Shown: positions 391 to 54,834 of the stretch, piece after piece
Layout: the number at the start of each line of letters is the position of its first letter
Position numbering within the stretch: the stretch's first letter is position 1
NCBI GenBank assembly: GCA_041601615.1
Contig: JBFIHX010000001.1
Span: 1-64,000, forward strand
Length of the DNA: 64,000 bases
Source of the DNA: Thermoplasmatota archaeon
GTDB lineage: Archaea; Thermoplasmatota; E2; JACPAO01; JAHFTW01
Reading direction: 5' to 3'
The notes under the pieces: model-generated
The model's database searches: none
What the model was told of the DNA's origin: nothing
Seen by the model: the letters and a program-made list of their open reading frames with translations, nothing else
Made by a program: the position numbers and the translations under genes

Positions 391-459
391 ATCTAACGGT
401 CGAAGTGACCCGCGCGCCGACGCGCGCGGCGGCGCGTCGGGTCGAGTGATTTGTTATCT
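391..459 (-). repeat. attC site 1
   Basis: Minus strand reads AGATAAC-AAATCACTCGACCCGAC...CGGGTCACTTCGACC-GTTAGAT, an imperfect palindrome with AAC/GTT cores, 2 nt after the stop of the 462-1889 gene. Confidence 0.9.
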
Positions 460-461
460 CG

Positions 462-1829
462 CTACGACGTGCCATCGTCCACCTGGAACAATGATGCTGC
501 CAGATCAGTGTCTGGGGCGATGCCGGCCAGCCAAGACCCAACGGCTCCATGTTCATCAATCCATAGGCCTTGGTAGTCGCCGTACGTGGGCCACCCCAAG
601 ACACCGCGCGGCGAGCTTGGTTCGAGAGGTTCGGCCGTAAGGTTCTGCGCAGTCAAGCCACCGCTAGAATCGATTCGGGTGACTCCGGGTTGAACCCGGC
701 CGTCTGGCTGGGTGACGTAGTGCGTGACAATGATATTGCCCGCGCTATCCGCGACGACCGCAGGAATGGCGGGACTGGGCCCAGCCGATTGAGCAAGGAT
801 GAGGTCCGTCCACGTCTTGCCGCCATCCCTCGACCGCTGCAGGTGCACGGTCTCCCATCCCTCTTCGTCAGGTTGGCCATAGACCAGTAGGATCTCATTT
901 CCAGCGGCAGCCATCTGCGTGGGGGCAACGGCGTGCATTCCCTCGAGCGGCTTCACATACCAAGAAGCACCCCCGTCGGTTGATGATGCCAGAACCAAGG
1001 CGGTTCCTGTACCATCCGGCCCGCGATTTCGCATGGCCACGAACAGGTGGCCTTCGTCGGTTATGGCGGGTCGCCCACCTCGGAGGGTGCCCGCGTCGCT
1101 TACCAATGTCGGCTCAGACCAGCTTCTGCCGCCATCTGTTGAGACGGCACTTGCAACATCTTGTGACATGGTACCATCAGGTGCGAATTCCTGGATAATC
1201 CAAATGGTGTGAACGTCACCATTCGGGGCGAGACTCATGAATGGCTGGTCATTCATTGTACCGAGACTTTGGACCCCTGTTACTCCGAGCGTGTCTGATA
1301 CGAAAGCAGCCTCGGGCCAGGTACGCCCGCCGTCCTCGGATCGCGCAACGGCGATGTCAAAGCTCTCCCACGCGGGAATCAATGCCTCCGGCGGTCCTTG
1401 CATGCCGCGACCGACCATTGCACTGTAGAGGGCAGTTCCGTCAGGAAGGAAAAGAACCCATGGATCAGCGAATGATTGTGCAAGCGCAAGCGGGTGGTCG
1501 GCAGAGACGTCGCCCGGGAACGAGCTTGACTCAAACGTCCCTCCGCCGTCAAAAGACACGTGATAATTAAGACCGACCGGCCCGCTGACTGGGTCCGTTC
1601 CTTTCCATGAAGATGAACCAATTAGGATGTTATCGGGATTGGTGGGGTTACGCGCGACGGCACTTTCAAAGGAATGCGTGGTTGACCCATCAACTGTGCG
1701 CATGCAGGGTCCAATGCAAATGGGGGGTGCCGCGTCAAGGTCTTCGGACTCGCCGCCTTCTCCAGGGCTGCCAAGGCACCCGGAAAGGACAGCGACCGCA
1801 AGTACGACAAGTAGCTTCGTCGACGACAT
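462..1829 (-). CDS. Secreted BNR/Asp-box (sialidase-like beta-propeller) lipoprotein, cassette-borne
   Basis: Lipobox VLSGCLG and repeated S.DGG.(T/S)W Asp-boxes. Start placed at MSSTKLL; the ORF extends to 1889. Confidence 0.8.
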   Translation of the reverse strand: MSSTKLLVVLAVAVLSGCLGSPGEGGESEDLDAAPPICIGPCMRTVDGSTTHSFESAVARNPTNPDNILIGSSSWKGTDPVSGPVGLNYHVSFDGGGTFESSSFPGDVSADHPLALAQSFADPWVLFLPDGTALYSAMVGRGMQGPPEALIPAWESFDIAVARSEDGGRTWPEAAFVSDTLGVTGVQSLGTMNDQPFMSLAPNGDVHTIWIIQEFAPDGTMSQDVASAVSTDGGRSWSEPTLVSDAGTLRGGRPAITDEGHLFVAMRNRGPDGTGTALVLASSTDGGASWYVKPLEGMHAVAPTQMAAAGNEILLVYGQPDEEGWETVHLQRSRDGGKTWTDLILAQSAGPSPAIPAVVADSAGNIIVTHYVTQPDGRVQPGVTRIDSSGGLTAQNLTAEPLEPSSPRGVLGWPTYGDYQGLWIDEHGAVGSWLAGIAPDTDLAASLFQVDDGTS

Positions 1830-1916
1830 GCGGTCCGTCAGGATGGTCCCCCTGCAAGAAGTTGTTGCGGCCGCCCCACCGGGGCCCACACGGATAGAGC
1901 TACCCGGGCAACAGCG

Positions 1917-1978
1917 AGATAACGGCCTCGAACTAACCCGCCGAGCGTAGCGAGGTCGGGTTGAGTGAGTCGTTAGGT
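1917..1978 (-). repeat. attC site 2
   Basis: Minus strand ACCTAAC-GACTCACTCAACCCGAC...CGGGTTAGTTCGAGGCC-GTTATCT. L''/L' pair (ACTCAACCCG / CGGGTTAGT) with a single extrahelical C. Confidence 0.92.
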
Positions 1979-2551
1979 GTCGCTTGTCGGAGCAAAACGT
2001 AGGCTAAACGTCAGCCGGTGTTCATCACAATATCGCGTGGGCACGCCGGCCCTATGGATGATTGCCCCGTCGAATACCACGAGCCGGCCGGGTTTCACCC
2101 CAACGCAGATTTGGGGCTCGCCTTGATCGTTAAAGATTATCGTTTCCCCACCCCATTCATGATCCCATTCGTGATTTACCATATATAAGAATGATATTTC
2201 CCCATCAGCATCATGTTGCGAACCGGAATCGTTGTGGGAGAAAGTGTAGCTGCCAAAGGAAAACAGATTGCAAAACACTCGCCGCAAACGGTAGGTTTTC
2301 CCAGATGTCTCTGGCATTTCGTTCAGGATTTTTTCGCAAGCCTGGGCAAGCCAATGCTCCGCGAAATCATCCACATCAAATGAAGCGACCCACTCCTTGA
2401 ACTTCCTCGTCTCTTCCTTCGATGCTTGTAGACAACTGAAATTCGCAATCAACATTGAATGGTGAAAGCGCAAAATTGCCTGTGGGTCGAAGAGGCCGTC
2501 GAATACATGCACGAAGTGCCCATCAACATTTTCGCTTCGATCTGCGTTCAT
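1973..2551 (-). CDS. 2OG-Fe(II) oxygenase (prolyl-hydroxylase-like), cassette-borne
   Basis: HxD motif (SHND), WxxxWGGET, GRLVVFDGAIIHRAG and RLTFSLRF. The stop TAA lies inside the attC R'' box. Confidence 0.85.
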   Translation of the reverse strand: MNADRSENVDGHFVHVFDGLFDPQAILRFHHSMLIANFSCLQASKEETRKFKEWVASFDVDDFAEHWLAQACEKILNEMPETSGKTYRLRRVFCNLFSFGSYTFSHNDSGSQHDADGEISFLYMVNHEWDHEWGGETIIFNDQGEPQICVGVKPGRLVVFDGAIIHRAGVPTRYCDEHRLTFSLRFAPTSDT

Positions 2552-2591
2552 GCTTTCAGCTGGCTAAATCCAGATACGTGCACATAGGCAA

Positions 2592-2762
2592 TCAGCGTAG
2601 CCCCAATCCCATCCGATCGTTCATTCTCATGCTAATCATCTCGAAGTCCTGGGGTGTGTTTACCATTGCTGACCTCTGTTCGAGTTGCGTAATCCGGTTT
2701 TCATAATGGCTTGACGAAACATCTTGGTCGCCGTTGGCCGGGGTTCGGGTTCCTTCGCTCAT
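2592..2762 (-). CDS. 56-aa small peptide (not in ORF track), same cassette as the oxygenase
   Basis: Hand-translated ATG..TGA: MSEGTRTPANGDQDVSSSHYENRITQLEQRSAMVNTPQDFEMISMRMNDRMGLGLR. It fills the cassette 5' part. Confidence 0.55.
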   Translation of the reverse strand: MSEGTRTPANGDQDVSSSHYENRITQLEQRSAMVNTPQDFEMISMRMNDRMGLGLR

Positions 2763-2837
2763 AGACTAGCCTGTGTGCCGAAATGGGGGTGCGCGTAATT
2801 GCGTTTTCGGTCGGCCCGGAGAAGGGTTACCTGCGAC

Positions 2838-2919
2838 ACCTAACGATTCGAACTGACCCGCCGCTCGCGAAGCGAGCCTGCGAGCAAAGCGAGTGGTCGG
2901 GTTGAGTGATTTGTTAGGT
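2838..2919 (-). repeat. attC site 3
   Basis: Plus strand ACCTAAC-GATTCGAACTGACCCG...GTCGGGTTGAGTGATTT-GTTAGGT. Confidence 0.92.
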
Positions 2920-3149
2920 GGCACCATAGAAGGACAGAGCAGAATGCCACCAGAGACCCCGACAGGCCATGTTCACCGCCGTTCAGCGGGAATTCCGCGA
3001 CCTAAGCGAAGGTTGTGTCGCGGCCTCCGCATGGTGACGCAATGCGCACTGCACCGCACTTCCAATGCAGCGATTTGGCCCGCGTCCTTCTCCCCGACGG
3101 CTCCACGATTTTGACAACCTATAAGGGCGCCGTTTTGCTTGTAAAAAAC

Positions 3150-3455
3150 ATGTCTTCCGGCATGGATCCGGCATTTATTGGTGCGATAGTGGCCATCGCG
3201 ATTTCCTTGGTGGGTTCAACCGTTTTTTTGGTTTGGAGCCGCCGACGAATGCCGGTAGGGGCACGTATCGTTTTTTCTCTGGTCGGTCCAGTCGGCTTGT
3301 ACTTTCTCGCCATCAACCTTGAGAATTTACCGCCCTTCGTCAGCAATGGTAGCCGCGACGCCAGCTTAATCATGCTACTGGGGATCGTACTGGGCCTCAT
3401 GCCATTTATTGTGACCCGGGCCTGGATTCGCGTTCGGCAAACACAGCGCGAGTGA
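3150..3455 (+). CDS. Small 3-TM membrane protein, inverted within its cassette
   Basis: Three hydrophobic segments; TATA-like CTATAAG at ~3119-3125 upstream of ATG 3150. Confidence 0.6.
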   Translation: MSSGMDPAFIGAIVAIAISLVGSTVFLVWSRRRMPVGARIVFSLVGPVGLYFLAINLENLPPFVSNGSRDASLIMLLGIVLGLMPFIVTRAWIRVRQTQRE

Positions 3456-3565
3456 AAACTGCTGAATTTCCGAAGACTTGGCCGCCTATCGCGATATAGA
3501 TCGGGCCAAATGAGCGTGAGCACGTGGAGCCTTACCACGGACCGTTTATTGCCAGTCACGGGTCC

Positions 3566-3639
3566 ACCTAACGGCCTCGAACTAACCCGCCGGGCGCCGG
3601 AGCGCGCGGAGGCGCGTCGGGTCGAGTGATTTGTTAGGG
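3566..3639 (-). repeat. attC site 4
   Basis: Plus strand ACCTAAC-GGCCTCGAACTAACCCG...GTCGGGTCGAGTGATTT-GTTAGGG; the right half is nearly identical to attC 1. Confidence 0.92.
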
Positions 3640-3765
3640 GGCGGTCGGCTGCAACAAGTTGGGCAGAGCATCATCTGGCTTCGGCCCGGCAGTCCACTCG
3701 AGCGAAATTTTAACTAGGTTGGGGCAAGCCAGCAGCTGCTGAGATTTCAGGGCGAGATCATGTTC

Positions 3766-4023
3766 TCAAGTAGATCGATCGATGACGCGTAGCTCCAACT
3801 CGTGTTGTGGAAAGTCTTCTGCCATTTGTTGGGCTAGGCGGCGAGCGGTCGGCTCGTCACTGGCCCGTATTTCAAATTCGCCAATGGTGCCCCCAAACCA
3901 GAGGTATCCATAATCTTCGACACCATCTGGATGGTCACGTCGCTCCCAAGGCCCTTTGTCTTCTTGAAAACGGGCAGGCATCCTAGCTGAGAAATGGCGA
4001 ATCGTGACCGCGAAGGTATGCAT
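3766..4023 (-). CDS. Hypothetical protein (85 aa), first cassette of array 1
   Basis: ATG-started ORF in cassette orientation with globular composition. Confidence 0.6.
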   Translation of the reverse strand: MHTFAVTIRHFSARMPARFQEDKGPWERRDHPDGVEDYGYLWFGGTIGEFEIRASDEPTARRLAQQMAEDFPQHELELRVIDRST

Positions 4024-4083
4024 GTCTTACACAAGCCCAACTGGGCTATTTGACTATGGGCTGCTACTGTGCCCGAAGAGACT

Positions 4084-4119
4084 GCCACCTAACTACTCCT
4101 TCACGGGTTTTCCCCTAAA
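4084..4119 (-). other. Putative attI-like cassette entry site
   Basis: Minus GTTAGGTGGC matches 9/10 to the attC4 R'' complement, with no attC hairpin. The flank is shared with 30223-30251. Confidence 0.6.
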
Positions 4120-4140
4120 GTGTAGCCATTGCAGAGGCGC

Positions 4141-4148
4141 TTATATAA
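4141..4148. promoter_or_regulatory. TATA box, candidate Pc-like cassette promoter
   Basis: TTATATAA in a GC-rich context, ~50 bp upstream of the array entry site. Confidence 0.45.
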
Positions 4149-4383
4149 TACTGGAGCGCAGCATTTCTCACAAGCCTGAATCCCCTCCAAGGAATCCCTA
4201 TCCAGAGTACATTCAACTACCCCATTCGCGGTGTTATGTGGACGCGACATAATACTGATTGATCATCAAAGAAGCATACTCGGGGCGTTTCGACGACGAG
4301 CATCATAATCGAGTGCTTCATGCATCTCCGATTGGCCTCCCCTATGGCCCTCGTCACGCACGGATCCCGCGTACCGGCGCAAC

Positions 4384-5097
4384 GTGCTCGATTCTCAAAG
4401 GGACGGACCAATTCAAGCTCGCCCGGTGTTTCGCCCTCGCAGTGGCTCCCGTTTCCCAACTCCTTCAAGACCCCTGGGCCTCCCCGTTCTGTTGCCCGAC
4501 TCGAATCCGGTTGTCCTTGTGCATGGCATTCTAGGCCAGCGGCACCTGTATTGGAATGTGTTCAAGCATCGCCTTCGTCAAGACGGCTTGCGCTACCATG
4601 ATTGCATTTTGCCGTATGGGATGCTTGGCGATATGCGCATCGCGGCGCAGTACCTCAAGGACAAGGTGGATGCTTGCTTGCGGCACGACGACTCGAAGAT
4701 GGTGTCGCTTGTTTGCCATAGCGCTGGCGGCCTCGTGGCTCGGTACTATTTGATGTACTTGGGCGGCAGCAAGCACGTGGATCGCGTGGTGTTTTTGGGT
4801 ACCCCACACCAGGGCACCTATTCGTCCTACTTCCTCGGCCTTCCCGTTCTGCTTCAAATTGCCAAGCAGGCTCGTCCGGGCAGCCACTTTCTCGACGAAA
4901 TCAACGGCCCGGGAGCGATTATGCCGGGCGTGCGGTTCTACAACCTCTGGTCGCCCATTGATGGAGTGGTGATTCCGAGCAACAACAGCAAACTTGCCGG
5001 CAGCCACTCGCGGAAGTTGCCGTGGACGACGCATTGGGGTTTCTTGTGGCGAAGCGATGTGTACGCCACCGTGCACGAGTGCCTGCATACCGCGTAG
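4384..5097 (+). CDS. Alpha/beta hydrolase (lipase/esterase)
   Basis: PVVLVHG, nucleophile motif CHSAGG, GTPHQG, DGVV and a C-terminal His. Confidence 0.85.
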   Translation: MLDSQRDGPIQARPVFRPRSGSRFPTPSRPLGLPVLLPDSNPVVLVHGILGQRHLYWNVFKHRLRQDGLRYHDCILPYGMLGDMRIAAQYLKDKVDACLRHDDSKMVSLVCHSAGGLVARYYLMYLGGSKHVDRVVFLGTPHQGTYSSYFLGLPVLLQIAKQARPGSHFLDEINGPGAIMPGVRFYNLWSPIDGVVIPSNNSKLAGSHSRKLPWTTHWGFLWRSDVYATVHECLHTA

Positions 5098-5105
5098 TGC
5101 AGCGA

Positions 5106-5858
5106 CTACAGGTAGGGGTGTCCGCGTTCCTTTTGCAGTGCTCGCAGGCTCTCTTGAATGGCGTCGCGTGTTTGCTCGGCCAATTCGTGCACTTGTCCCC
5201 GGCTTGCCACGGTTTCCGGCCCTAGTCCCGCAAGGTCCAGGGGCGGGAGGAACCGGATGCGCCATTTCACGGGTTTGGGCAAGATGTTGCGAGGAATCGG
5301 CAAGCCGCCGCGCATGCGGAGCAAGTCGTCATAGCCTTCGACGCGAACACCCACCGGGTTGCTTTCGGCGCCGCCCAGAATTGCCACGGGGACCACGGGC
5401 ACGCCCATTTCGAGGGCGACGCGCACGAAGCCTCTGGCAAACGGTTCCAGGTTGTACTCGCTGCCGGGTTTGAACGCCCCGCGTTCTCCCTCGGGAAACA
5501 TCATGACCAACTCGCCTGCGGCCAGGTGTTCTCGCATGGCGTCCTTGCCCACGGGGACGATGCCGCATTTGGTGGCAAATTCGCGGGTCGCCTTCGCTTT
5601 GAACCAGGCCTCGTGTGCCATGCCGCGCACCATTCGACCGGTTTGCTCGAACACCGTGAGGGCCGTGAGGGCGTAGTCGAGGCCGAGCCAGCCGGTATGG
5701 TTGCACACGAGGATCGCCGGGCCGGAGGGGGGCACATGCTCGATACCGCTGTGTTTGAGTCGAGTGTAGAATCGAATCGTCCGGAACCACGGTACGAGTT
5801 TCTCCACGAAGCCCACGTCAAGCCCGTCAGGGGCGGCGGTGACCTCGGAGTCTGTCAA
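5106..5858 (-). CDS. Lysophospholipid/glycerol acyltransferase (PlsC-like)
   Basis: NHTGWLGLD (HxxxxD-like), FPEG, GFVRVAL and PVVPV. Start inferred at TTG 5858. Confidence 0.85.
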   Translation of the reverse strand: MTDSEVTAAPDGLDVGFVEKLVPWFRTIRFYTRLKHSGIEHVPPSGPAILVCNHTGWLGLDYALTALTVFEQTGRMVRGMAHEAWFKAKATREFATKCGIVPVGKDAMREHLAAGELVMMFPEGERGAFKPGSEYNLEPFARGFVRVALEMGVPVVPVAILGGAESNPVGVRVEGYDDLLRMRGGLPIPRNILPKPVKWRIRFLPPLDLAGLGPETVASRGQVHELAEQTRDAIQESLRALQKERGHPYL

Positions 5859-5975
5859 GGAACCGAAGCACGAGGGCCGAGACTGAAAACCTACGCACCC
5901 CCAAACCCGCTGCCCGCCGGCGACGGGGTCGGTTGATAGGATTGAAACGGGAGGCCTCCATCGCCTGTTTGTTCC

Positions 5976-7997
5976 ATGGTCGAGATCCTCCTCGAATCCG
6001 TCCCGAGCCCCACGTCTCCTGCGGACCAGGATGCTGCCTGGGCAGAGCTTGCCCGGGGCCTTCTTCGTCAGCCTGACGTCCCGTTTGACACCCACTGGGA
6101 GGTCTACAAACACGTCTTTGCGTCCAGGCGCCCGGAACATGGCCCTCCCATCGCGTGGACGCCCAGCGATGCGACCTTGGCCAATGCCAATCTGACCACC
6201 CTTCAGGAGCTCGCCGAGCAACCAAATCAAGATGCGCTGCATGATTGGAGCACCAAGAACCGCGCCGAGTTCTGGGGCGTCGCGCTGGATCTGCTGGAGG
6301 TGCCCTTCCAAGAAAAACCCGAATCCATTCTGGATGACAGCGGCGGGCCGGAACACCCGGTTTGGCTGCCGGGGGCTCAGATGAATGCCGCGGAACTGTG
6401 CTTCCAAGCGGACCCGAAGGCAACGGCCATTGTCACCGGCCGCGAAGGCACTGATCGGTTGACTTCCTGGACCTACGGGGACCTCAAGGCGCTCGCGGAC
6501 CGTGTTAGCCTTGGCCTCTTGGATTCGGGCTTCGACCGAGGCGATGCCATTGCGCTATACATGCCGATGACTGCCGAATGCGTCGCTGCGTACCTTGGCA
6601 TCGTGCAAGCGGGCCTCGCGGTGGTCAGCATCCCGGACAGTTTTGCACCCCCTGAGGTGGCCACTCGCCTCCGATTGGGCGGCGCCAAGGCCATGATTAC
6701 AGTCGCATCGTTCCAACGTGCAGGTCGGGCGGTCGCCATGGCGCCAAAGGCGATCGAAGCCAGCGAAGAGACACCGGGCGCGCCCCCGTGCATCGTCATT
6801 GGCGACGTTTCCACCACCGAGCTTCGCTACCATGACCTTGCTTGGGATGATTTTCTGGGTCTGCCTAAGCCGTTTGCGGCCCGCGCTATGGCGCCAGAAG
6901 CTACGAGCAACATCCTGTTTTCTTCGGGTACGACGGGCGAACCGAAGGCGATTCCTTGGACGCATCTCACACCTCTCAAATGCGCCGTGGATGGCCACTT
7001 GCACCAGGACATCCACTCGGATGACGTGGTGGCGTGGCCCACCAACATTGGTTGGATGATGGGTCCTTGGCTCATCTACGCAGCACTTGGCAACCGAGCC
7101 ACCATGGCATTGTGGGAGGGCGCTCCCGTGGGCGAGGCGTTCATGGATTTCTTGGAACGAGCCCGTGTTTCTGTGCTCGGTGTCGTGCCCTCCATGGTGC
7201 GTGCCTGGAGCGTTTCGGGTGTTGCTCCTGGTCGGCTGCCTCGTGTGCGTGTCTTCAGTTCTACGGGCGAGGCAAGCAATCCGCACGACTACCTCTACTT
7301 GATGAGTCTGAGCCACTATCAGGCCCCGGTCATCGAATACTGCGGCGGTACCGAAATCGGCGGCGGGCACCTCACGGGCACGGTCGTGCAACCGGCGTCT
7401 CCTGGCACCTTCACGACGCCTGCCATGGGCATTGATTTCGTGCTCATGGACGACGAGCAAAAAATCGTGACCGGCCCTGGCATGGGTCAGATCTACTTGT
7501 TGCCGCCAAGCCTTGGGTTGTCGCAGAGCCTCCTGAATCGTGACCACCACGAAGTGTACTTCGAGGGCTGCCCTCCGGGTCACGGCGGTGCGATCTTGCG
7601 CCGACACGGCGACGAAGTGGAGCGCCTGGCGTGTGGCTTCTACCGGGCCCAAGGCCGCGCCGACGACACCATGAACCTTGGCGGCATCAAAGTGGGAAGC
7701 ATCGAGATTGAAACGGTTCTCAATGGCCACCCGGACGTGGCGGAAACGGCCGCAGTCGCGATTCCGCCGGAGGGTGGCGGTGCCGATCGGCTCGTGGTGT
7801 TCGTGGTGCCAGTGGCTGGCAAGCGCGTGAGCGAACTGAAGGTGGATGTGCTTATGCCGGCGATGCAAGCGCGCATCAAACAGCACCTCAATCCACTGTT
7901 TCGCATTCACAACGTGGTTGTCGTCAAGGAACTGCCTCGCACTGCAAGCAACAAAGTGATGCGCCGAGAACTTCGAGATCAGTACAAGGGCCCATGA
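5976..7997 (+). CDS. AMP-dependent acyl-CoA synthetase (acetate/acetoacetate-CoA ligase family)
   Basis: FSSGTTGEPK, YCGGTEIGG, GRADDTMNLGG and LPRTASNKVMRR. Confidence 0.9.
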   Translation: MVEILLESVPSPTSPADQDAAWAELARGLLRQPDVPFDTHWEVYKHVFASRRPEHGPPIAWTPSDATLANANLTTLQELAEQPNQDALHDWSTKNRAEFWGVALDLLEVPFQEKPESILDDSGGPEHPVWLPGAQMNAAELCFQADPKATAIVTGREGTDRLTSWTYGDLKALADRVSLGLLDSGFDRGDAIALYMPMTAECVAAYLGIVQAGLAVVSIPDSFAPPEVATRLRLGGAKAMITVASFQRAGRAVAMAPKAIEASEETPGAPPCIVIGDVSTTELRYHDLAWDDFLGLPKPFAARAMAPEATSNILFSSGTTGEPKAIPWTHLTPLKCAVDGHLHQDIHSDDVVAWPTNIGWMMGPWLIYAALGNRATMALWEGAPVGEAFMDFLERARVSVLGVVPSMVRAWSVSGVAPGRLPRVRVFSSTGEASNPHDYLYLMSLSHYQAPVIEYCGGTEIGGGHLTGTVVQPASPGTFTTPAMGIDFVLMDDEQKIVTGPGMGQIYLLPPSLGLSQSLLNRDHHEVYFEGCPPGHGGAILRRHGDEVERLACGFYRAQGRADDTMNLGGIKVGSIEIETVLNGHPDVAETAAVAIPPEGGGADRLVVFVVPVAGKRVSELKVDVLMPAMQARIKQHLNPLFRIHNVVVVKELPRTASNKVMRRELRDQYKGP

Positions 7998-28126: not shown

Positions 28127-28190
28127 GGTCGACGGTTGAGCAAAGCCGTATCGACCGGAGGTGGAGGTTCGTTTGAGCGATTTGTTAGGC
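28127..28190 (-). repeat. Degenerate attC site 5
   Basis: Right half TTGAGCGATTTGTTAGGC fits the family; left half GTCGAC-GGTTGAGC is eroded. Confidence 0.6.
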
Positions 28191-28345
28191 GTCCGGCTCG
28201 TCAGGCGTGCGCACGCTAGCGCAATCATGAGTGCGACATGCGATTCTGGCTACTACCTGTTGAATCAGCAGCAATTAGGCGGAATGGCGCTCGGGGGCCT
28301 TTCTCGGTCCGGTGCATTCATCCCCCGCGCGTCCGTCCCGGATTC

Positions 28346-29275
28346 ATGACGGAACACGAGTTGATTGCCATGTCCCCTGGATGGATTCGGGCCGGTGAAG
28401 TCGGGGCGCAAGCATTGGCAGCGGGCAAGGCAGCGTCTGTTCCAGGTGCCCGTGCGTACGATGTAGCCATCGCAATGGAAGAATGCATTCGCTCGGCCGG
28501 CCTCGAACCAGCATTTCCGGGCACCGTCAGCATTGATTCTATGGCTGCACACTGGTCCCCAACGCGCGCCGATGACCGAATCCTAGAGGAAGGCCAACTC
28601 GTGAAACTCGATTGTGGAGCCAGCTATCTTGGCGACCTCTCTGACAATGCATTGACGATTGAGGTCGGCGGAACCAACGAACACTCGGCCTTGATTCGGA
28701 CGGCAGAAGCATGCCTGACGGCGGCCATAGATGCCGTGCGCCCGGGGCTAAACCTAGGCGAACTCGGAGCCATCGTCGAAGCAACCGCAGAGGACCACGG
28801 GTTCCAGACCATCGAGAACCTAGGGGGCCATTCACTCGAGCGAAACAAACTCCACGCCGCCTTGTACGTTCCAAGCATTGGAATGAAGACCAAGCAGGTG
28901 CTCAAGGCCGGAGATCGATTGGCAATCGAACCATTCGTAACGGATGGCCGAGCAGGACGCGTCCAAGATGCCGGACCCAGCAACGTCTACCAACTCCGGC
29001 GGCCACAGCCACAACGGGCCCCCGCCCCGAAACGATTGCAAGACCTCATCCAGCGAACCCACCCGCACCTTGCGTTCTCCTCGCGCTGGCTTGAAGGCGT
29101 CATGGCCCCCGCTCAACTGTCCTTCGCACTGAACCACCTGCAGCGGACCAATGTATTGACCCACTACACGGCCCTTCGTGAAGCCAGCGGCGGCATGGTT
29201 GCCCAACGAGAAGCCACGGTGATGGTCTCCGACGATGGCGGCTACGTTACCACAAGACAGCCCGCCGCCGCGTAG
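28346..29275 (+). CDS. map: Type II methionine aminopeptidase (divergent), inverted within a cassette
   Basis: PAFP, AAHWSP, VKLDCG, SDNALT, NLGGHS, LAIEPF and VAQRE metal ligands plus the type II insertion. Confidence 0.9.
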   Translation: MTEHELIAMSPGWIRAGEVGAQALAAGKAASVPGARAYDVAIAMEECIRSAGLEPAFPGTVSIDSMAAHWSPTRADDRILEEGQLVKLDCGASYLGDLSDNALTIEVGGTNEHSALIRTAEACLTAAIDAVRPGLNLGELGAIVEATAEDHGFQTIENLGGHSLERNKLHAALYVPSIGMKTKQVLKAGDRLAIEPFVTDGRAGRVQDAGPSNVYQLRRPQPQRAPAPKRLQDLIQRTHPHLAFSSRWLEGVMAPAQLSFALNHLQRTNVLTHYTALREASGGMVAQREATVMVSDDGGYVTTRQPAAA

Positions 29276-29343
29276 GCACGAAACCCGACGGGACCATGAA
29301 CGCACGGGCGCTTTCGATTGGTAGTTGGGTCAAGACTGGTGAC

Positions 29344-29410
29344 GCCCAATGATTCGAACTGACCCGCTCCAAGCCGTAGGCGAGGAGTCGGGTTGAGTGA
29401 CTTGTTATCC
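29344..29410 (-). repeat. attC site 6 (R' core mutated)
   Basis: GCCCAAT-GATTCGAACTGACCCGCTCC...GGAGTCGGGTTGAGTGACTT-GTTATCC. Arms are nearly identical to attC 10, but AAC has become AAT. Confidence 0.88.
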
Positions 29411-29422
29411 GCCGTCGGGCAA

Positions 29423-30154
29423 TTACGTCCTCTGGGTGAATACAACAATTGTTTGCCAGCCCAACCAGGCCAGCGCGAGCAAGAGGACAAGAGCCATCGC
29501 CTCCGTTTGAAACGCGGGAATTACTGCCGCCATCGCCGACACGATTGCAATTTGAATGGCATAGTAAAGCGGAATAATAATGACGACTCGCCCAAGTTCT
29601 GCTTGAACCATGGATCCAACGTGACGCATCGCAGCCACCGACTCCTGCTCCAAATCGGCGTACCTCGCAGTAGCCCGCAAAGCCGACCACGGTGCGCGCC
29701 GCGCCTTGGCGCCTCCGGCGAGGAACTTCATTGAGATTTGCCACGCATGCCGGGTGGGCACTTCATCGACTGAGTCTCCCACCAAGGTGCCGCCATCCAT
29801 TGCAGCGATGGTCTGCTGGTGAACGGGCTCGAGCATGTCGACCAAGTTGCGGGCGATGGCCCGCATTTCCGATTGGAGATTCATGTAATAGGCGCCGAAA
29901 ATTGCAATCATGGCCAGCGCACCAGGGATCAGGGCAAGTTGAAAGGACGACGAAGGTGAGAGCCAACCGAGCTTTGATCCCGCCATAAGATCCACGAGGA
30001 AAGCCAAACCAATCAGGAAGCCAATCCGCCAGATGTAGTGCAGAAAGTTCTTGCCCATGGCTGCCAACTCGTTGCCGCCGTCGACCGTATTTGCCGATTG
30101 CATCAAGGCGCTGCCTACGGTGCGGGCGTTATGCCAGGTGGACGGTTCTTTCAT
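29423..30154 (-). CDS. 4-TM membrane protein, cassette-borne
   Basis: 2+2 TM topology; stop lies 12 bp from the attC. Confidence 0.7.
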   Translation of the reverse strand: MKEPSTWHNARTVGSALMQSANTVDGGNELAAMGKNFLHYIWRIGFLIGLAFLVDLMAGSKLGWLSPSSSFQLALIPGALAMIAIFGAYYMNLQSEMRAIARNLVDMLEPVHQQTIAAMDGGTLVGDSVDEVPTRHAWQISMKFLAGGAKARRAPWSALRATARYADLEQESVAAMRHVGSMVQAELGRVVIIIPLYYAIQIAIVSAMAAVIPAFQTEAMALVLLLALAWLGWQTIVVFTQRT

Positions 30155-30215
30155 GCTCTAACAAAGGCGTCACGCCACTTACACTGCTCGCTTCCAGTAT
30201 GGCGCCACGGCCCCC

Positions 30216-30251
30216 GGGGGATAACTCCTACCTCAGCGGTTTTCCCCTCAA
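30216..30251 (-). other. Putative attI-like cassette entry site
   Basis: Minus GTTATCCCCC; 23/29 identity with 4091-4119, including GGTTTTCCCCT. Confidence 0.6.
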
Positions 30252-49504: not shown

Positions 49505-49570
49505 CGTCCGATGAACTGTGTGCGGCGGGCTGCGTGGGTAGCAAGGAGTGGTTTGGGTGGATTGTTATCC
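49505..49570 (-). repeat. Highly degenerate attC site 7
   Basis: TGAACTG...GGAGTGGTTTGGGTGGATTGTTATCC aligns to the family consensus. Its GTTATCCTG pairs with CAGGAT at 50515-50520. Confidence 0.5.
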
Positions 49571-49619
49571 TGAGGACGGCCTGCAAATGTGCGTCTCCGA
49601 AGCGCGACTATTCGCCCCC

Positions 49620-49920
49620 CCCCGGTACAGGTCGGAAGTGTCATTTCCTCCACGGGTAAGATCCAGAAGGTGTCTTTGTTCATACGGAAGATGCTGTGGT
49701 CTACCAGAAAATAGTCGCCAGGAACTTCCTCTTCAATCGCAACGATGGGCGGCCTGCCGCCGGGAATGGGGGTGGTTTGGACGTTCTCATGCGACGTGCT
49801 CTCCAGGCCCCCTTACTTCCAAACACGGTCGAAGATTTCCCCATTGATGTTGAAGCTACTGAAGAGATTGGGACCGCCGTTTCCGACGAAGATGCGCACG
49901 GTGTCGCCGACCTCCGCTCG
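49620..49920 (-). pseudogene. nirK: Copper nitrite reductase C-terminal fragment
   Basis: Hand translation: [35 protein letters not shown]...ENVQTT...EVPGDYFLVDHSIFR. Stop at 49813-49815. Confidence 0.85.
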
Positions 49921-49964
49921 CCCCCCTCCGGCATGGTTATCGATTGCGTGGGGACTCCTCCTGC

Positions 49965-50441
49965 GTGAAGCGGCACCCGGCGTTTCAAGACCTCAGCCGC
50001 GACCACTTCACGGCGCTCCTGGCTTGCCTAAACGTCCGACGCGCCACCGAGGGACATCCATCCGCTCCAACACCAGAGGCGGCAATCGCTCAGTTCGGGC
50101 AACTTTGGCGCAATGAACTAACACATCATTTCGACGAAGAAGACGCCAACATTCAACCCGTCCTAGCTGCGAAAAAAGCCCACACCCAACTGGCTACACT
50201 ACGCCTTGATCACAAGGAGATTCGGGCCGCCATGGAAGCGCTCCACGCCAAAGATCCGGCCCCCACTTGGGCTGTAGCTGCAGAACGCCTACGCGCCCAC
50301 ATCCGGTGGGAAGAAGACGTACTATTCCCTTGGATGCAGGACCACCTCACCGATGAGGAATTGGAACGCATGTTGGCAGCCAGCATCGCCTTTCGCACCA
50401 AAGTTCGAGGGCCAGATTCGGTGAAACCACCAAGGCCCTAG
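49965..50441 (+). CDS. Hemerythrin (HHE) domain protein
   Basis: KRHP....[24 protein letters not shown]. Confidence 0.88.
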
Positions 50442-50516
50442 TCCAAGGGATACGATTCGAGCTCCTAGAACCGCTAGGGCTCTGGCGTGGTGGACGGGCA
50501 ACTCTGGACGGTGGCA

Positions 50517-50580
50517 GGATCCTGGTTGAACTGACCCGCCGTGAGCGGGGCGAGTGGTCGCGTTGAGCGATTTGTTGGGC
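50517..50580 (-). repeat. attC site 8 (R' core destroyed)
   Basis: GGATCCT-GGTTGAACTGACCCG...GTGGTCGCGTTGAGCGATTT-GTTGGGC; AAC is replaced by CCT. Confidence 0.8.
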
Positions 50581-50691
50581 GAAATTCGATGATTCATTGA
50601 ATCCACATGGGCCGTCGCGCGACAGAGGTGTCTGGCCTGAGGCAAGCAAGAAAACACACTCTGTCTTTGGCCTATGTCGAGTGGCGGGGCA

Positions 50692-51078
50692 CTATGTCAT
50701 CAGTGTCAGTTGGCTTCTTCGGATTTCGCGCATCCTCAACAATGTCTCTCGGAGTTCAACCACGCGCGCCGCGTCGCCACCGATGATGAGTACGTCCATG
50801 CAGGTCTCCGGTTCGCAATGCGTGTGCATCAAGCTCAGGACCACGTCATGGAAAGCATGGCGCACGTCTGAGATTTTGAAACTATGTTCGTGCGCGTAGG
50901 TCATTGTGATCGACCCATGCACGTGGCCCTCGGTGGCGCTGTGTTGGCGTTGCAGCAATTCTCGAATGGCGGCCCGCATGAATTCGCTGCGTCCCTGGTA
51001 ACGTCCCTGGTCGATGGCGGCGTCCATTTCGGCGGCCAGTTCGCTCGGGATGCTCATGCTGACAATGCCCATGTTCAT
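50692..51078 (-). CDS. NikR/CopG family metal-responsive regulator
   Basis: RHH (VSMSIP..GRSEFMRAAIR) plus NikR-type ligands H...MHTH..C. Confidence 0.9.
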   Translation of the reverse strand: MNMGIVSMSIPSELAAEMDAAIDQGRYQGRSEFMRAAIRELLQRQHSATEGHVHGSITMTYAHEHSFKISDVRHAFHDVVLSLMHTHCEPETCMDVLIIGGDAARVVELRETLLRMREIRRSQLTLMT

Positions 51079-51094
51079 ACGCGAAAACAGCCAA

Positions 51095-51105
51095 TGTTAT
51101 TAACA
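51095..51105. promoter_or_regulatory. Palindromic operator/promoter between divergent nikR and znuA
   Basis: TGTTA-T-TAACA in the short divergent intergenic region. Confidence 0.4.
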
Positions 51106-51146
51106 AATCGCAAAAGGCTATGAACCAATTGGGGTGGCCACCGCGC

Positions 51147-52043
51147 ATGAAACAGTTCACCCCTCTGCTCTTCGCAGTGCTCATGCTCTCAGGATGCGTC
51201 GGAAACGTGGAGCGCGCCGACTTGGTCGTCGCCAGTTACCCAGCCTACTTCGTCGCTTCCAACCTCGCCGGCGAGGACCTAAGCATCGCCGACCTAAATG
51301 GGGGCGCCCTGCACGGCTTCGAGGCCAGCGCACGCGATCTCGACCAACTGCGAACCTCCAGCCACCTCGTACTTTGGGACGAGGGCCTCGAATCATGGGC
51401 GCACCGCGCCGAAGCCGCTCTCGGCTCCTCCGCGCCAAAAGTCATCGAGATTACCGCATTGCCGGCAGGGGATGATCACCTGGAAGGCGGGGAAGAGGGC
51501 CATGGTGCCGGGCATGACCATGGAAAACTCGACCACGACCCCCATACCTGGAACGACCCCCTCGCCATGCGGGCCAGTGTCCAGGTACTCGAGGCCTACC
51601 TCATCGAGGCCTACCCCGAGTTCGCAGACAACATCGAAACGCGCGCGACGGACCTCAAGCAGCGCCTCGCCGAACTGCACGAGGCCTATGCATCTTCCCT
51701 GTCCGATTGCGCCCGTGACACGGTCGTCACGAACCACGAAGCCTACAACTACATGGCCCAGCGCTACGATTTCCACATATTCGCCCTCCACGGCATCGAA
51801 CCCGGGTCCGAACCGTCCCCCAAGACCGTGGACGAAGCCATCCAGAAGATCAAGGATCTCAAAATCCCTGTCATCTTCATCGAAGAGGGCACCGATTCTG
51901 GTGCCTTGAAGGCAATCCGTGACGAGACCGGCGTCCAAGTTCGCGTTCTCATCACCAGCGAGACCCGACCAGCAACCGGCGACTACATTGACTCGCAGAA
52001 TCGCAACCTGGATGAACTTCGATTCGCGTTGGGCTGCGCTTGA
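51147..52043 (+). CDS. znuA: Zn/Mn ABC transporter substrate-binding lipoprotein
   Basis: Lipobox LSGC, LHGFE, His-rich loop, DPHTW, HEAYNY. Confidence 0.9.
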   Translation: MKQFTPLLFAVLMLSGCVGNVERADLVVASYPAYFVASNLAGEDLSIADLNGGALHGFEASARDLDQLRTSSHLVLWDEGLESWAHRAEAALGSSAPKVIEITALPAGDDHLEGGEEGHGAGHDHGKLDHDPHTWNDPLAMRASVQVLEAYLIEAYPEFADNIETRATDLKQRLAELHEAYASSLSDCARDTVVTNHEAYNYMAQRYDFHIFALHGIEPGSEPSPKTVDEAIQKIKDLKIPVIFIEEGTDSGALKAIRDETGVQVRVLITSETRPATGDYIDSQNRNLDELRFALGCA

Positions 52044-52750
52044 GCATCCACGCGACGGATCTCTGCGTCCACTACGGCGACTATTGCGCATTGCATCACA
52101 TCGACTTCCAAGCCGAAGCGGGAGAGTTCATCGGCGTCGTCGGCCCCAACGGTGGTGGCAAGACGACGCTCATGCGTGCCCTCTTGGGCCTGCTGCGCTC
52201 TGCGCATGGCGAGCTCCGCGTCGACGGGCACGTCGCCTACGTCGCCCAAGACGCCGTTCATATGGATCCCAACATTCCGGTATCAGTCATGGAATTCGCA
52301 AACCTCGGCCGCCTGGACCGACGGTTCTGGCGCCGACCTTCGCAGGAAGACCGCGCCCGCATCCAGGAAGCCCTCGAAGAAACAGGCGTCTGGAACCTAC
52401 GGGCGCGGCGCCTCTCAGCACTCAGTGGCGGCCAACGCCAACGCGTTCACCTCGCCCAGGCCTTATGCCAAGACGCGAAGGTCCTGTTGCTGGACGAACC
52501 CACGACCGGCGTCGACCCCAAGAGCCGCCAAGAGCTTTACCAACTTCTGCGGCACTTGAGCCATGACCACGGGATCACCATCATCATGGTCAGCCACGAT
52601 ACCGAAAGTCTCGCCGACATTGCCGATCGGATCATCGTAGTGGACAAGACCAAGCGATTCGACGGCAACGGCCAGGCATACCGGGAGTGGTCTCGAACAG
52701 CACTTGAGCTCCCGGTTGACAACCCGTTCGGCGCGCACGAGGTACCATGA
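52040..52750 (+). CDS. znuC: Metal ABC transporter ATPase
   Basis: GPNGGGKTT, LSGGQRQR, LLDEPT, SHD. Confidence 0.92.
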   Translation: MSIHATDLCVHYGDYCALHHIDFQAEAGEFIGVVGPNGGGKTTLMRALLGLLRSAHGELRVDGHVAYVAQDAVHMDPNIPVSVMEFANLGRLDRRFWRRPSQEDRARIQEALEETGVWNLRARRLSALSGGQRQRVHLAQALCQDAKVLLLDEPTTGVDPKSRQELYQLLRHLSHDHGITIIMVSHDTESLADIADRIIVVDKTKRFDGNGQAYREWSRTALELPVDNPFGAHEVP

Positions 52751-53553
52751 GCTTCGACCTGTTCCTGACGGAGCCCTACTTTCAGCGCGTCCTTGCGACG
52801 GCCTTGGTCGTCGCGGCCACCTCTGCAGTCATCGGCGTATTCCTCGTCCAACGTGGCATGGCCTTGTTCGGCGATGGCATCGCGCACATGTCCTTTGCTG
52901 GCATCGCGCTTGGCTTCGTTGCGGGGTGGATGCCCTTGGGAGCCGCCATCGCCGTGGCCAGCCTCGGCGCCCTCGCCGTCCAAGAATTACAGCGCCGCAA
53001 TTGGGCCCGCTCCGATGCAGCCCTTGGCATTGTCTACACATCCTGCCTCGCCTTGGGTGTCGTCTTGGTCAGCAGCCAAGGATCGGTCCCGGTGGACGTC
53101 GAGTCGTATCTATTTGGCAACCTGCTTCTGGCGGGCGAACGAGAATTCACTCTAGCCGCAATCATAGCAGTGATTGTCGCCGGCACAGTCACGTTGCTGT
53201 GGAGGCCGTTCGTGCTGCTGTCGTTTGGCGAGGAACGTGCCAAGGTGCAGGGCTTGCCCGCAAAGGGCCTCAACACAATCTTCACGATTCTTACAGCCCT
53301 CGCCGTCGTCGCGTCTGTACGCGTCGTCGGTGTGCTGCTTGTCAGCGGCTTGCTCATCATTCCAGCGTCCGCCGCCAGTCGTCTAGCCCGCAGTATGCGC
53401 CAAGCGGTCCTTCTGAGCATTGCGTTCGCGTTGGGTGCGGTCGTCTTTGGCTTGGCAATCAGTGCCGAGTTCTCATTGGCGAGCGGGGCGACCATTGCGC
53501 TCACCGCCGCCGCCATCTTCGTGGCAACGGGATTTGCGCCCGGACGCAGGTGA
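52747..53553 (+). CDS. znuB: Metal ABC transporter permease
   Basis: GDGIAH, YLFGN, VGVLLVSGLLIIP. Confidence 0.92.
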   Translation: MSFDLFLTEPYFQRVLATALVVAATSAVIGVFLVQRGMALFGDGIAHMSFAGIALGFVAGWMPLGAAIAVASLGALAVQELQRRNWARSDAALGIVYTSCLALGVVLVSSQGSVPVDVESYLFGNLLLAGEREFTLAAIIAVIVAGTVTLLWRPFVLLSFGEERAKVQGLPAKGLNTIFTILTALAVVASVRVVGVLLVSGLLIIPASAASRLARSMRQAVLLSIAFALGAVVFGLAISAEFSLASGATIALTAAAIFVATGFAPGRR

Positions 53554-53629
53554 TCTTTCGCCACCGGAGCCCGAACGTCGAATGGGGCCGGTTTGCCTCA
53601 TCTCAACGCGTGCGATTTTGGCGAGGCCG

Positions 53630-53710
53630 CCCTAACACTCGAGCTGACCCGTCGCCAGCGAAGCGAGCTTGCGACCTCAGGAAGTGGTCGGGTCGAGTGG
53701 CTTGTTAGAC
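53630..53710 (-). repeat. attC site 9
   Basis: CCCTAAC-ACTCGAGCTGACCCG...GTGGTCGGGTCGAGTGGCTT-GTTAGAC. Confidence 0.9.
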
Positions 53711-54094
53711 AGCGCGTTTTACTCTCGTTTGCTGCTGGGTCAGCAACCAAGCGATGCGGCGGTGCGAAGCGAAATGATGAATCACAATTCCACTCGCGAA
53801 CAGGAGGCTAGCAACGCTCCACCCCGCGAGGATGAAGCCGCCAAGTCCCGCCACAAAGACGACGATCTCAATGGCAAGGCGAGTCGCGCCCCCTACCTCC
53901 ACAGGTGCATGCCCCTTGGAGCTTGGATCTTCGGGGACGCGAAAAATCACCCACGCGACCACGCCCACGGTGGGCAACCCGGCCGCCAACAGAAGGCGTG
54001 CCCATCCTGAGGTTGCCTGCAAACCAATTAGCGTGAGGCCGACGATTGCGGCAAGCTCGAGAGTAAACCGAAGAGCAAGGTTCGCGGGGTTCAT
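53705..54094 (-). CDS. YrdB/DUF2568 family membrane protein, cassette-borne
   Basis: NLALRFTLEL, W..F.VP.DP, RLAIE. The stop TAA lies inside the attC R'' box. Confidence 0.85.
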   Translation of the reverse strand: MNPANLALRFTLELAAIVGLTLIGLQATSGWARLLLAAGLPTVGVVAWVIFRVPEDPSSKGHAPVEVGGATRLAIEIVVFVAGLGGFILAGWSVASLLFASGIVIHHFASHRRIAWLLTQQQTRVKRAV

Positions 54095-54158
54095 GTGTGG
54101 TACTGCGGGGGGCATTCTCCAACCACAGTCAATGGAAGGCGGTGCCACGCTTAGCGCT

Positions 54159-54224
54159 GCCTAACGGTCGAACTGACCCGCTCCGGAGCGAAGCGGAGGA
54201 GTCGGGTTGAGTGACTTGTTAGCT
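54159..54224 (-). repeat. attC site 10
   Basis: GCCTAAC-GGTCGAACTGACCCGCTCC...GGAGTCGGGTTGAGTGACTT-GTTAGCT. Confidence 0.92.
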
Positions 54225-54226
54225 GG

Positions 54227-54682
54227 TCAAGATTGAAGCCCGATGCGGCCGGAACCGCAAGTTAGGTCAACCACGATGGCAATCGCGGTGATTGCAAACA
54301 CGCCGAGAACTGCTTGCCACATCTTGTAGGAACTGAAATGATACCATCGGCGCAGCTCAGGGTATTCCGTATCATTGCGTCCGGCTGTCGCATGAATAAC
54401 GGCGAGGCCATTGGCTGCGTCCTTCTCGAAAGCCTCCAAATGCTTGCCGGCGATAACTTCGTGCAGCCGGTGTTTCGCCATCAACTGCATGGACGCCAGG
54501 GCGACCAGGAAGGACAGGAGCGCGGCCACCAGTCGTGGGCCGCGTGAAATATCCGCTCCGAGCAATATCGAAAACAAGAATGCTTGAGCGGTTAGGCTCA
54601 ACACAGGAGTCTGCCACAACAGCGTATCAAGGCTTGTGCGGCGATCCGCCAGTACGGCGTATTGGCGTTTATCGATGGACAC
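54227..54682 (-). CDS. 3-TM membrane protein, first cassette of array 3
   Basis: LLWQTPVLSLTAQAFL and three TMs; stop 2 nt from the attC. Confidence 0.75.
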   Translation of the reverse strand: MSIDKRQYAVLADRRTSLDTLLWQTPVLSLTAQAFLFSILLGADISRGPRLVAALLSFLVALASMQLMAKHRLHEVIAGKHLEAFEKDAANGLAVIHATAGRNDTEYPELRRWYHFSSYKMWQAVLGVFAITAIAIVVDLTCGSGRIGLQS

Positions 54683-54720
54683 AGATTGTGAGGGGCGCCA
54701 TAGTTCTTGAACCCAGCTAA

Positions 54721-54834
54721 CTTGGTATTATCCCGCCTCCTTGGTATTATCCCGCCTCCTTGGTATTATCCCGCCTCCTTGGTATTATCCCGCCTCCTTG
54801 GTATTATCCCGCCTCCTTGGTATTATCCCGCATC
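54721..54834. repeat. Tandem repeat, 6 x 19 bp (CTTGGTATTATCCCGCCTC)
   Basis: Five perfect copies plus one with a single mismatch; no spacers. Confidence 0.97.

Follow-up and report, generated by a model that had tools for sequence, protein, structure and literature searches.

The stretch analysed here (the window) comprises the first 64 kb of C1, a 436-kb contig in the metagenome-assembled genome (MAG) of a Thermoplasmatota archaeon (GenBank assembly GCA_041601615.1, here G000: 30 contigs, 2.79 Mb, 93% complete, 0.28% contaminated). Among its genes, which include those for aRF1, Hef, archaeal-type PheS, HerA, MetRS, ArgJ and ornithine carbamoyltransferase, lie attC sites and integron-type gene cassettes, grouped at four loci (391-4092, 28127-30224, 50519-50580 and 53630-54721), the first of which, array A, runs into the contig edge. 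An initial annotation of the window had described ten attC-like elements in three scattered arrays of an archaeon, with no integrase nearby, and had proposed a multi-locus platform served in trans rather than one integron. The host is indeed an archaeon: aRF1, Hef, PheS and HerA are encoded in the window, and a small-subunit (SSU) rRNA fragment of archaeal type was found in the genome, a bacterial one not. The scattering of the arrays also stands, now over four loci instead of three.

attC sites and cassettes of the window

A covariance model (R1) was built from 35 attC copies taken from all over the genome. Scanned over the window with filters off (E < 1e-3), it recovers nine attC-type elements, one fewer than first counted and all on the + strand; seven are intact, spanning 54.8-73.8 bits, and two are decayed (Table 1). 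The 19-nt 3' block CGGGTYGAGTGRYTTGTTA, allowing up to 3 mismatches, occurs eight times in the window, again always on the + strand, against 0.04 expected, and none of 100 shuffles reaches eight; the 11-nt 5' block GAACTGACCCG by itself (up to 2 mismatches) is not above chance there, with 28 matches vs 23.2 expected. AAC and GTT are invariant in 35/35 genome copies.

A structure was written by hand on the 35-copy alignment, with a 4-bp R box (TAAC/GTTA), an unpaired spacer, a 9-bp L stem that a bulged G interrupts, then a bulged T, and finally the variable-stem base. Standard pairs occupy 94.8% of the 595 cells, and compensatory (two-sided) changes occur in 9 of the 17 pairs, e.g. GACCCG/CGGGTY, AAGCCG/CGGCTT and AACGCG/CGCGTT, or A-T to G-C at columns 16/72. 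Among 500 shuffles, none matches the observed covariation on four of five measures and three do on the fifth (further pair types), while sliding one arm by 1-3 columns leaves pairing at only 27-40%. Folded as single-stranded DNA, seven of the nine window elements form the hairpin (z -1.4 to -3.8), the exceptions being those at 28127-28190 and 50519-50580. Folding and covariation thus back the element family that had been proposed.

The bulged arm of an attC marks its bottom strand. Here both the bulged G and the bulged T lie on the 3' arm of the + strand and the clear cassette open reading frames (ORFs), those of A4, A3, B1, C2 and C1, are all on the minus strand, so the + strand is the bottom, recombinogenic strand. 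The window elements are attC sites: imperfect palindromes with R''/R' boxes of the form AAC...GTT and an L-box stem; one arm carries the extrahelical bases, and the terminal structure varies. Bottom-strand selectivity of attC sites, and their spacer, extrahelical-base and terminal-structure (UCS/EHB/VTS) features, are treated in PMC8946536. No Rfam family was matched in the window at gathering thresholds, nor did ARAGORN find a tRNA in it.

The cassettes behave as modules. In 34 neighbouring attC pairs genome-wide, the bases after the GTT of one attC were compared with those before the AAC of the next: the perfect complementary run between a cassette's own two ends averages 9.06 (n = 34). Flanks of the same in-array attC give only 3.98 (n = 56), and a control that skips one attC gives 3.97 (n = 29). 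Such complementarity of a cassette's own ends is what exchange of whole circular cassettes at the G/TT position produces. The pairs of complementary ends pointed out earlier in the window are exact as given (453-463/1913-1923, 11/11; 1972-1983/2833-2844, 12/12; 2913-2921/3564-3572, 9/9; 53704-53715/54154-54165, 11/12; 54218-54226/54713-54721, 9/9). To these can be added cassette A1 (GTTAGGGGGCGG at 3633 vs CTGCCACCTAAC at 4082-4093, 10/12), cassette B1 (GTTATCCGCCGT vs CCGGGGGATAAC at 30214-30225, 10/12) and cassette B2 (GTTAGGCGTC at 28184 vs ATTGGGCGTC, the reverse complement of the bases preceding 29350, 8/10). The two stop codons said to fall inside the R'' box do so: the minus-strand ORFs of A3 and C2 stop at the TAA within TAAC/GTTA. 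In G+C the cassettes (0.51-0.60) are lower than their flanks (0.61-0.63).

No cassette of at least 90 bp is common to the window arrays and the other arrays of the genome, save that positions 3-331, in the truncated cassette at the contig start, have a 73%-identical paralogue at C12:50834-51162; the arrays have therefore turned over after any duplication. One attC, 54159-54224, equals the attC at C6:270-335 over all 66 nt, and the adjoining cassettes have no common match of at least 90 bp. The last attC of C11 and the C6 attC precede an identical 12 bases; those contig ends may join. The second type II methionine aminopeptidase (MetAP) of the genome, in cassette B2, scores 229.6 bits with TIGR00501 (cut-off 222.65) and has a paralogue at C6:70143-71015 (51% identity). 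It sits between a decayed attC and a crossover-mutated attC, on the strand opposite to the other cassette ORFs, and has the look of an extra copy of a housekeeping enzyme that was taken up in cassette form.

The integrase and the attI core

That no integrase lies nearby holds for the window: a tblastn search with the genome's integron integrase (IntI) finds nothing in C1 at E below 1, and no IntI remnant in the window. It fails for the genome, where the sole match, on contig C16, is a 436-aa tyrosine recombinase (C16:15954-17264) that scores 414.7 bits with the TIGR02249 'integron integrase' profile (cut-off 265), over profile positions 5-314 of 315. Its residues 109-414 align to VchIntIA/Vibrio IntI4 (2a3v) at E 1e-75, with a single one-residue gap across the IntI-specific stretch ALxxKYPNA...RRHH, and the catalytic R, K, HxxR, H and Y (the RKHRHY positions) are conserved. 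The intI gene lies beyond the first cassette, and divergent from the cassettes, of an array of at least 11 attCs (C16:118-13887) whose long ORFs are on the minus strand in 8 of 11 cases. C16 is archaeal: gatE (GatE, 693.7 bits) is found at a distance of 11.5 kb from intI, with FlaI- and ArlJ-like genes after it. With IntI, attI and at least 11 cassettes, the integron of C16 is complete. Across the genome, a search by motif and model, in which 150 of about 2000 candidates were scored, gives at least 55 attCs at E ≤ 0.01, with further arrays on C21, C25, C26 and C11. Two of the checks put forward in the initial annotation, a genome-wide attC covariance search and a search for a recombinase with the IntI-specific stretch, gave positive results.

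The attI of this integron can be read at C16:15780, 174 nt ahead of the intI ATG: the first cassette ends ...GCAGGATAAC, complementing its attC flank, and is followed by TCCTCCTTCACGGGTTTTCCCCTAAAG..., which runs to the intI ATG. The core is about 25 bp long and can be written as AAC followed by T..T..YTCA..RGTTTTCC. The pattern AACTNNTNNYTCANNRGTTTTCC, with up to one mismatch, has eight occurrences in G000 and none in its reversed control. All eight are placed exactly at the proximal cassette boundary (the end of the reverse complement of the last attC's R' flank) and in the correct polarity, and intI adjoins only one of them. One complete integron is therefore accompanied in this genome by at least seven further attI cores, each heading its own short array. 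Two of the eight, at 4091 and 30223, are in the window.

The window copy at 4091 (attI-A) extends beyond the core: 4090-4257 is 95.8% identical over 168 bp to C16:15779-15946, the homology stopping 8 nt ahead of the intI ATG. An alpha/beta-hydrolase gene, 4384-5097 (+), occupies the place of intI; tblastn detects no intI remnant beside attI-A, and the C16 DNA past the spacer has no match in C1. The other copy, attI-B, has flanks unrelated to C16, and the same retention of only the core of about 25 bp, with unrelated flanks, is found at C5:18824 and at both C13 sites. attI-A heads four cassettes and attI-B two, of which one is live and the other decayed. That all eight cores lie exactly at cassette boundaries shows that insertion, or duplication followed by turnover, took place at each. 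That no cassette is common to the arrays, and that the core alone is conserved at most satellites, favours use and maintenance over debris.

In all, 22 array heads were examined. Besides the eight with a core, four are cut by a contig end, three have a short ATTATCCCGCC-like motif (window position 54721 included), two have clean boundaries with other flanks, two are of low confidence, and at three no boundary was found.

Some copies have further motifs. In C16, in C25 and in the window attI-A, a TATA-like TTATATAA is found some 50 nt away from the crossover (4141-4148 in attI-A, which also has GTTATGTGGACG at 4233-4244). More generally, a TTATATAA or TTTATATA box at about 50 nt from the crossover and an GTTATGTGGAYG motif at about 150 nt (57 nt in C13:51344) are common to several attI copies, and might serve as an archaeal promoter and an additional site for IntI.

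The join of array A to attI-A was checked with Logan contigs from four runs of one study, of which one may be the source of the assembly, aligned to window positions 1-6000. A 3810-bp contig of X1 spans 316-4125, a contig of X3 spans 3578-4139 and one of X2 spans 4096-5586, each with zero differences, and in X2 this includes bases specific to the attI-A copy. Through these bridging contigs, three samples bear out the join of cassette, attI and hydrolase. The paralogues from C25 and C16, matched at 90% likeness, account for the loose ends at 4122 and 4257. The joints listed have sides of 22-27 nt (one 50) and come from other attC copies at 90% likeness; they are not used as evidence of activity, and neither is an X4 contig with a different sequence before 4089, which could be another attI copy.

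Table 1. Integron-type features of the window (R1, bit score with the attC covariance model; z, hairpin fold)
Feature	Positions	Strand	Description
Truncated further cassette, array A	1-396		At contig start
attC, array A	391-459	+	Most distal on contig; AAC 395-397; R1 71.2 bits, E 7e-15; z -2.5
Cassette A4	397-1922	-	ORF 462-1889 (-), 475 aa, BNR/sialidase-like repeat protein; Pfam BNR_2 1.1e-13
attC, array A	1917-1978	+	R1 60.5 bits
Cassette A3	1923-2843	-	ORF 1973-2551 (-), 192 aa, FlmC-like 2OG-Fe(II) (2-oxoglutarate, iron) oxygenase; NF052475 5e-35, under its cut-off
attC, array A	2838-2919	+	Long variable terminal stem; R1 70.8 bits; z -3.8
Cassette A2	2844-3571	ambiguous	ORF 3015-3455 (+) or 3119-3559 (-), 146 aa each; neither matches Pfam
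attC, array A	3566-3639	+	Closest to attI; R1 60.3 bits
Cassette A1	3572-4092	-	First beside attI-A; small ORFs 3766-4023 or 3834-4088 (-), no Pfam match
attI-A	4091-4257	+	Copy of attI-intI spacer; crossover AAC 4091-4093, core 4091-4116
Decayed attC, locus B	28127-28190	+	GAC replaces AAC, stem broken; R1 26.1 bits, E 6e-4; no hairpin fold
Old cassette B2	28187-29349	+	Second type II methionine aminopeptidase gene, 28238-29275 (+), reverse orientation
attC, locus B	29344-29410	+	Crossover triplet AAT (at 29348), not AAC; R1 54.8 bits
Cassette B1	29350-30224	-	ORF 29423-30154 (-), 243 aa; no Pfam or NCBIfam match
attI-B	30223-30248	+	Core alone, AAC then TCCTACCTCAGCGGTTTTCCCCT, between core genes; exact pattern match, exactly at cassette boundary
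Degenerate lone attC	50519-50580	+	5' AAC box lost, 3' end GTTG; R1 42.7 bits; no hairpin fold
attC, array C, distal	53630-53710	+	R1 57 bits; z -3.3
Cassette C2	53636-54164	-	ORF 53705-54148 (-), 147 aa, DUF2568 membrane protein; Pfam 4.6e-15
attC, array C, proximal	54159-54224	+	R1 73.8 bits
Cassette C1	54165-54720	-	ORF 54227-54682 (-), 151 aa, weak 8xMP membrane-protein match; Pfam 5e-4, under cut-off
Proximal junction of array C	54719-54831	+	AAC 54719-54721, then 19-bp repeats; no attI core

We note some features at the heads and flanks of the remaining loci. Directly after array C, Tandem Repeats Finder reports a period of 19 with 5.8 copies of TTGGTATTATCCCGCCTCC at 100% matches, a unit unique in the genome; 310 bp past these repeats is a gene for a 275-aa serine recombinase (55141-55968) with Resolvase and Recombinase domains and a CcrB-like N-terminal half. 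A second type of junction was considered for the ATTATCCCGCC-like sequence, which follows the crossover at window position 54721, at C4:188070 and at C7:103655 and has a counterpart some 50 nt away from attI in genus g4; the likeness extends over a short length. The lone attC is flanked by a hemerythrin-domain gene before it and, beyond it, by a NikR-like regulator ORF, 50692-51078 (-), of 128 aa (81.6 bits, under its cut-off).

The IntI frame on C16 has about 105 residues ahead of the TIGR02249 match, where bacterial relatives match from residue 7-9. This N-terminal extension seems to be a conserved feature of this IntI subgroup; the IntIs of genus g4 are without it, and in them a mere 90 nt or so separate the attI core from where the match starts. 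A second tyrosine recombinase, on C13, is not an IntI.

Integrons in related genomes

Two genome samples were searched, one of relatives (41 genomes, including G000) and one across the phylum (401 genomes). IntI above the cut-off is found in 9 of the 41 relatives including G000, which amounts to 8 of 24 genomes of the same family; in the phylum-wide sample it is found in 10 of 401, with 6 of 18 in the family (G000 left aside) vs 3 of 382 in other families. R1 attCs occur in 16 of the 41 relatives. The IntIs of the eight family genomes cluster, the nearest at 73% identity, beside bacterial IntIs in a quick unrooted tree with one artefactual row (L017, with a very long branch; L039 and L055 were dropped, no open frame having been recovered). 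The closest named IntI relatives are all from bacterial MAGs, at about 60% identity or less.

The core recurs along with the integrase. It lies just upstream of intI in G012, G018, G014 and G005, that is, with G000, in five of the nine IntI-bearing genomes; in three of the others the contig ends upstream of intI. Further copies exist as well, G012 having six core sites in all and G018, G014, G020, G017 and G026 two each. Among 11 further sites of the relatives in the loci fetched, there are 9 at which the 12 nt ahead of the crossover match, in reverse complement, the R' flank of the nearest attC with no more than 3 mismatches, six of them with at most one (the misses are L111 and L123). An alignment of 24 sites has its information packed into about 25 nt after the crossover, with little past +28. 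As a negative control, none of 80 metagenome loci kept for an exact pattern match carries an attC of this family; all are chance matches.

Two relatives have peculiar arrangements. G026 (90% complete, 80 contigs) has two attI-headed arrays, with 7 and 4 attCs in the loci fetched (C6:48000-66000 and C36:1-9000), and no IntI match; all that tblastx detects beside one of its attI sites is a weak likeness to the N-terminal extension of IntI. In G019 (C7:56000-68000) the attCs are longer, at 96-105 nt, and the match of intI to its profile is split in two (positions 6-257 and 254-314), as a frameshift might cause.

The satellite sites were also compared by position. In the loci fetched, none is at a conserved chromosomal position between genera. 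In two genomes of the same genus the flanks of locus B match at 70-79% identity on different contigs and with other neighbours, and neither attC nor attI is present there.

Reading of the loci and its alternatives

Judging by the attC structure, the modularity of the cassettes, where the core lies and how it is conserved, an IntI that has its specific domain, and the archaeal surroundings on both contigs, the four cassette loci in the window are very probably satellites of a genuine integron system on the chromosome of an archaeon. Under the usual definition of clustered attC sites without an integron integrase (CALIN), i.e. two or more attCs within less than 4 kb of each other and neither intI nor a pseudogene of it in the vicinity, arrays A and C are CALINs, with four and two attCs and no intI in C1. 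Locus B is not of the single-attC kind (SALIN), a single cassette at an attG site sharing only GWT, as it ends at an exact attI core. The idea of a multi-locus platform served in trans gains from the fact that two window arrays end at the very core found beside intI. What does not survive is the phrase 'rather than one integron': C16 holds a classical complete integron, and the window arrays are accordingly satellites of an ordinary integron system, not an integrase-less system.

The C16 IntI presumably acts in trans on the window sites. It would bind the folded bottom strand of an attC together with the double-stranded attI core and exchange single strands between AA and C (G/TT on the top strand), and replication would resolve the product, as reviewed for integrons in PMC8946536. 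Circular cassettes would be inserted head-first at attI, their ORFs reading away from it, which in the window means on the minus strand; the TATA-like box beside attI-A may drive them. We give about an even chance to a distributed integron, in which one integrase serves many chromosomal docking sites, the core having been copied to, and kept at, places between core genes. Its scope would be the eight sites in G000 and, in six relatives that belong to four genera, between 2 and 6 sites per genome, every site with an array of its own.

Several observations weigh against such use of the window sites. Array C and seven other array heads in the genome have no attI core, and in G019, where the sequence upstream of intI is present, no core is found at up to one mismatch. 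Part of the window material is decaying, the hairpin being lost at 28127 and 50519 and the crossover changed to AAT at 29344-29410; the existing cassettes of locus B, at least, may be fixed. In the contigs of the four runs, no credible circular or deletion joint is seen and no recombination event. Synteny is broken between the genomes of the same genus, hence no empty-site comparison. Within the MAG, the IntI is encoded on another contig than the window; what links the two is binning, the shared attC/attI family and the archaeal markers on both contigs.

It is unlikely, if by no means far-fetched, that the window arrays are inert relics of a larger integron or of old insertions, with attI-like cores left over from duplicated platform DNA. 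The two decayed elements of nine, and the AAT crossover of a third, would fit this, as would the absence of excision joints, the 168 bp of platform sequence at attI-A, which duplication followed by loss of intI would leave, and the attI-headed array of G026 with its faint IntI remnant alongside. Yet at attI-B, C5:18824 and both C13 sites the core was kept while the flanks are unrelated, which agrees better with selection on the core than with neutral decay; seven of the nine window attCs are intact and fold, and the lack of a shared cassette of at least 90 bp speaks for turnover after any duplication. Perhaps instead the dispersed cassettes arrived by off-target insertion at ordinary sites, along the attG route to SALINs and small CALINs, with no docking sequence at all. 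Array C, ending at its 19-bp tandem repeat, would suit this, and five of the 22 heads (the two with other flanks and the three ATTATCCCGCC-like ones) combine a clean cassette boundary with no core. We nevertheless consider it improbable: among the 18 G000 heads that no contig end cuts, 8 have a 23-nt pattern which is otherwise not in the genome and which adjoins intI in five genomes, whereas attG sites are reported to share GWT only. Array C and the lone 50519 element may themselves be off-target insertions or relics.

An artefact, in the form of mis-binned bacterial integron contigs or a chimeric join at the start of C1, would be in keeping with the bacterial MAG origin of the nearest named IntI relatives, with the position of array A at a contig edge, and with the branching of the Logan graph in the shared attI spacer (loose ends at 4090, 4122 and 4257). 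It is very improbable given that attCs and attI-B lie 28-54 kb inside a 436-kb contig among aRF1, MetRS, ArgJ, HerA and Hef, that intI shares its contig with gatE and FlaI/ArlJ-like genes, that single contigs of X2 and X3 cross the junctions without a difference even at copy-specific bases, and that the IntIs of eight genomes of an archaeal family cluster, in a MAG with the low contamination given above. Finally, the elements are short GC-rich imperfect palindromes downstream of ORFs, with modest fold z-scores and no Rfam family, so that they might be repeats of another kind, such as repetitive extragenic palindromic (REP)-like elements, miniature inverted-repeat transposable elements (MITEs) or transcription terminators. 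This can practically be dismissed in view of the invariant AAC...GTT, the bulges on one arm, the complementarity of cassette ends, the cognate IntI and the conserved attI at array heads.

The satellite loci reading invites comparison with known systems. Class 1 integrons with a truncated or lost intI1 keep attI1, and are recent deletion derivatives on mobile elements. attI-A is like them in being an attI followed by cassettes without a working integrase alongside; unlike in them, there are here seven sites per chromosome, most of them core-only, recurring across genera. The sedentary integrons of Vibrio type (Cury et al. 2016, PMC4889954) likewise have one intI, many cassettes mostly of unknown function, similar attCs, and CALINs elsewhere; they differ, as that paper describes them, from the present case of an archaeal host and an array split over many loci. 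The attG sites and SALINs of Loot et al. (bioRxiv 10.1101/2022.09.11.507474) also feature single and two-cassette arrays scattered among ordinary genes, far from intI; those sites, by that account, have GWT only, while eight array heads here share about 17 specified bases with a bona fide attI.

Closest are the archaeal integrons of Ghaly et al. (2022, Sci Adv, PMC9668308), who reported six IntIs in 6718 genomes, CALINs and a putative attI beside intI, and put forward the idea that CALIN cassettes can be used in trans. The present arrays resemble the archaeal MAG arrays of that study in having short ORFs between attCs, mostly without an adjoining intI, and an IntI-specific domain. They differ in that one family has IntI in 8 of 24 genomes and the core recurs heading integrase-less arrays; that paper places attI only beside intI. 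Since archaeal integrons, CALINs, attI beside intI and the idea of use in trans have been published (PMC9668308), the kind of system is already known. In the open-access text searched we did not find a description of an attI core recurring at the heads of integrase-less arrays, and it is possible that the multi-attI layout is new.

The first reports of archaeal integrons date only from 2022 and drew on a small number of integrases and on MAGs in fragments. The genome studied here offers a clean case, with intI linked to archaeal gatE, attC arrays set among aRF1, MetRS and Hef, and an integron-rich family. The origin of CALINs is an open question in the field. Whether CALINs own an attI could not be asked, because attI is unknown for most integrons and hence not searchable near CALINs (Cury et al. 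2016, PMC4889954); here it is readable from the sequence and recurs heading satellite arrays. Use of these sites in trans would mean that an integron can be more than a single locus, and captured genes could be placed under different local promoters chromosome-wide; such use is directly testable by the recombination assays already applied to archaeal attCs. Should the distributed arrangement prove true, the CALINs here would be neither debris nor the result of off-target insertion but outposts in working order, each with an attI of its own, and CALINs would have a concrete and testable origin.

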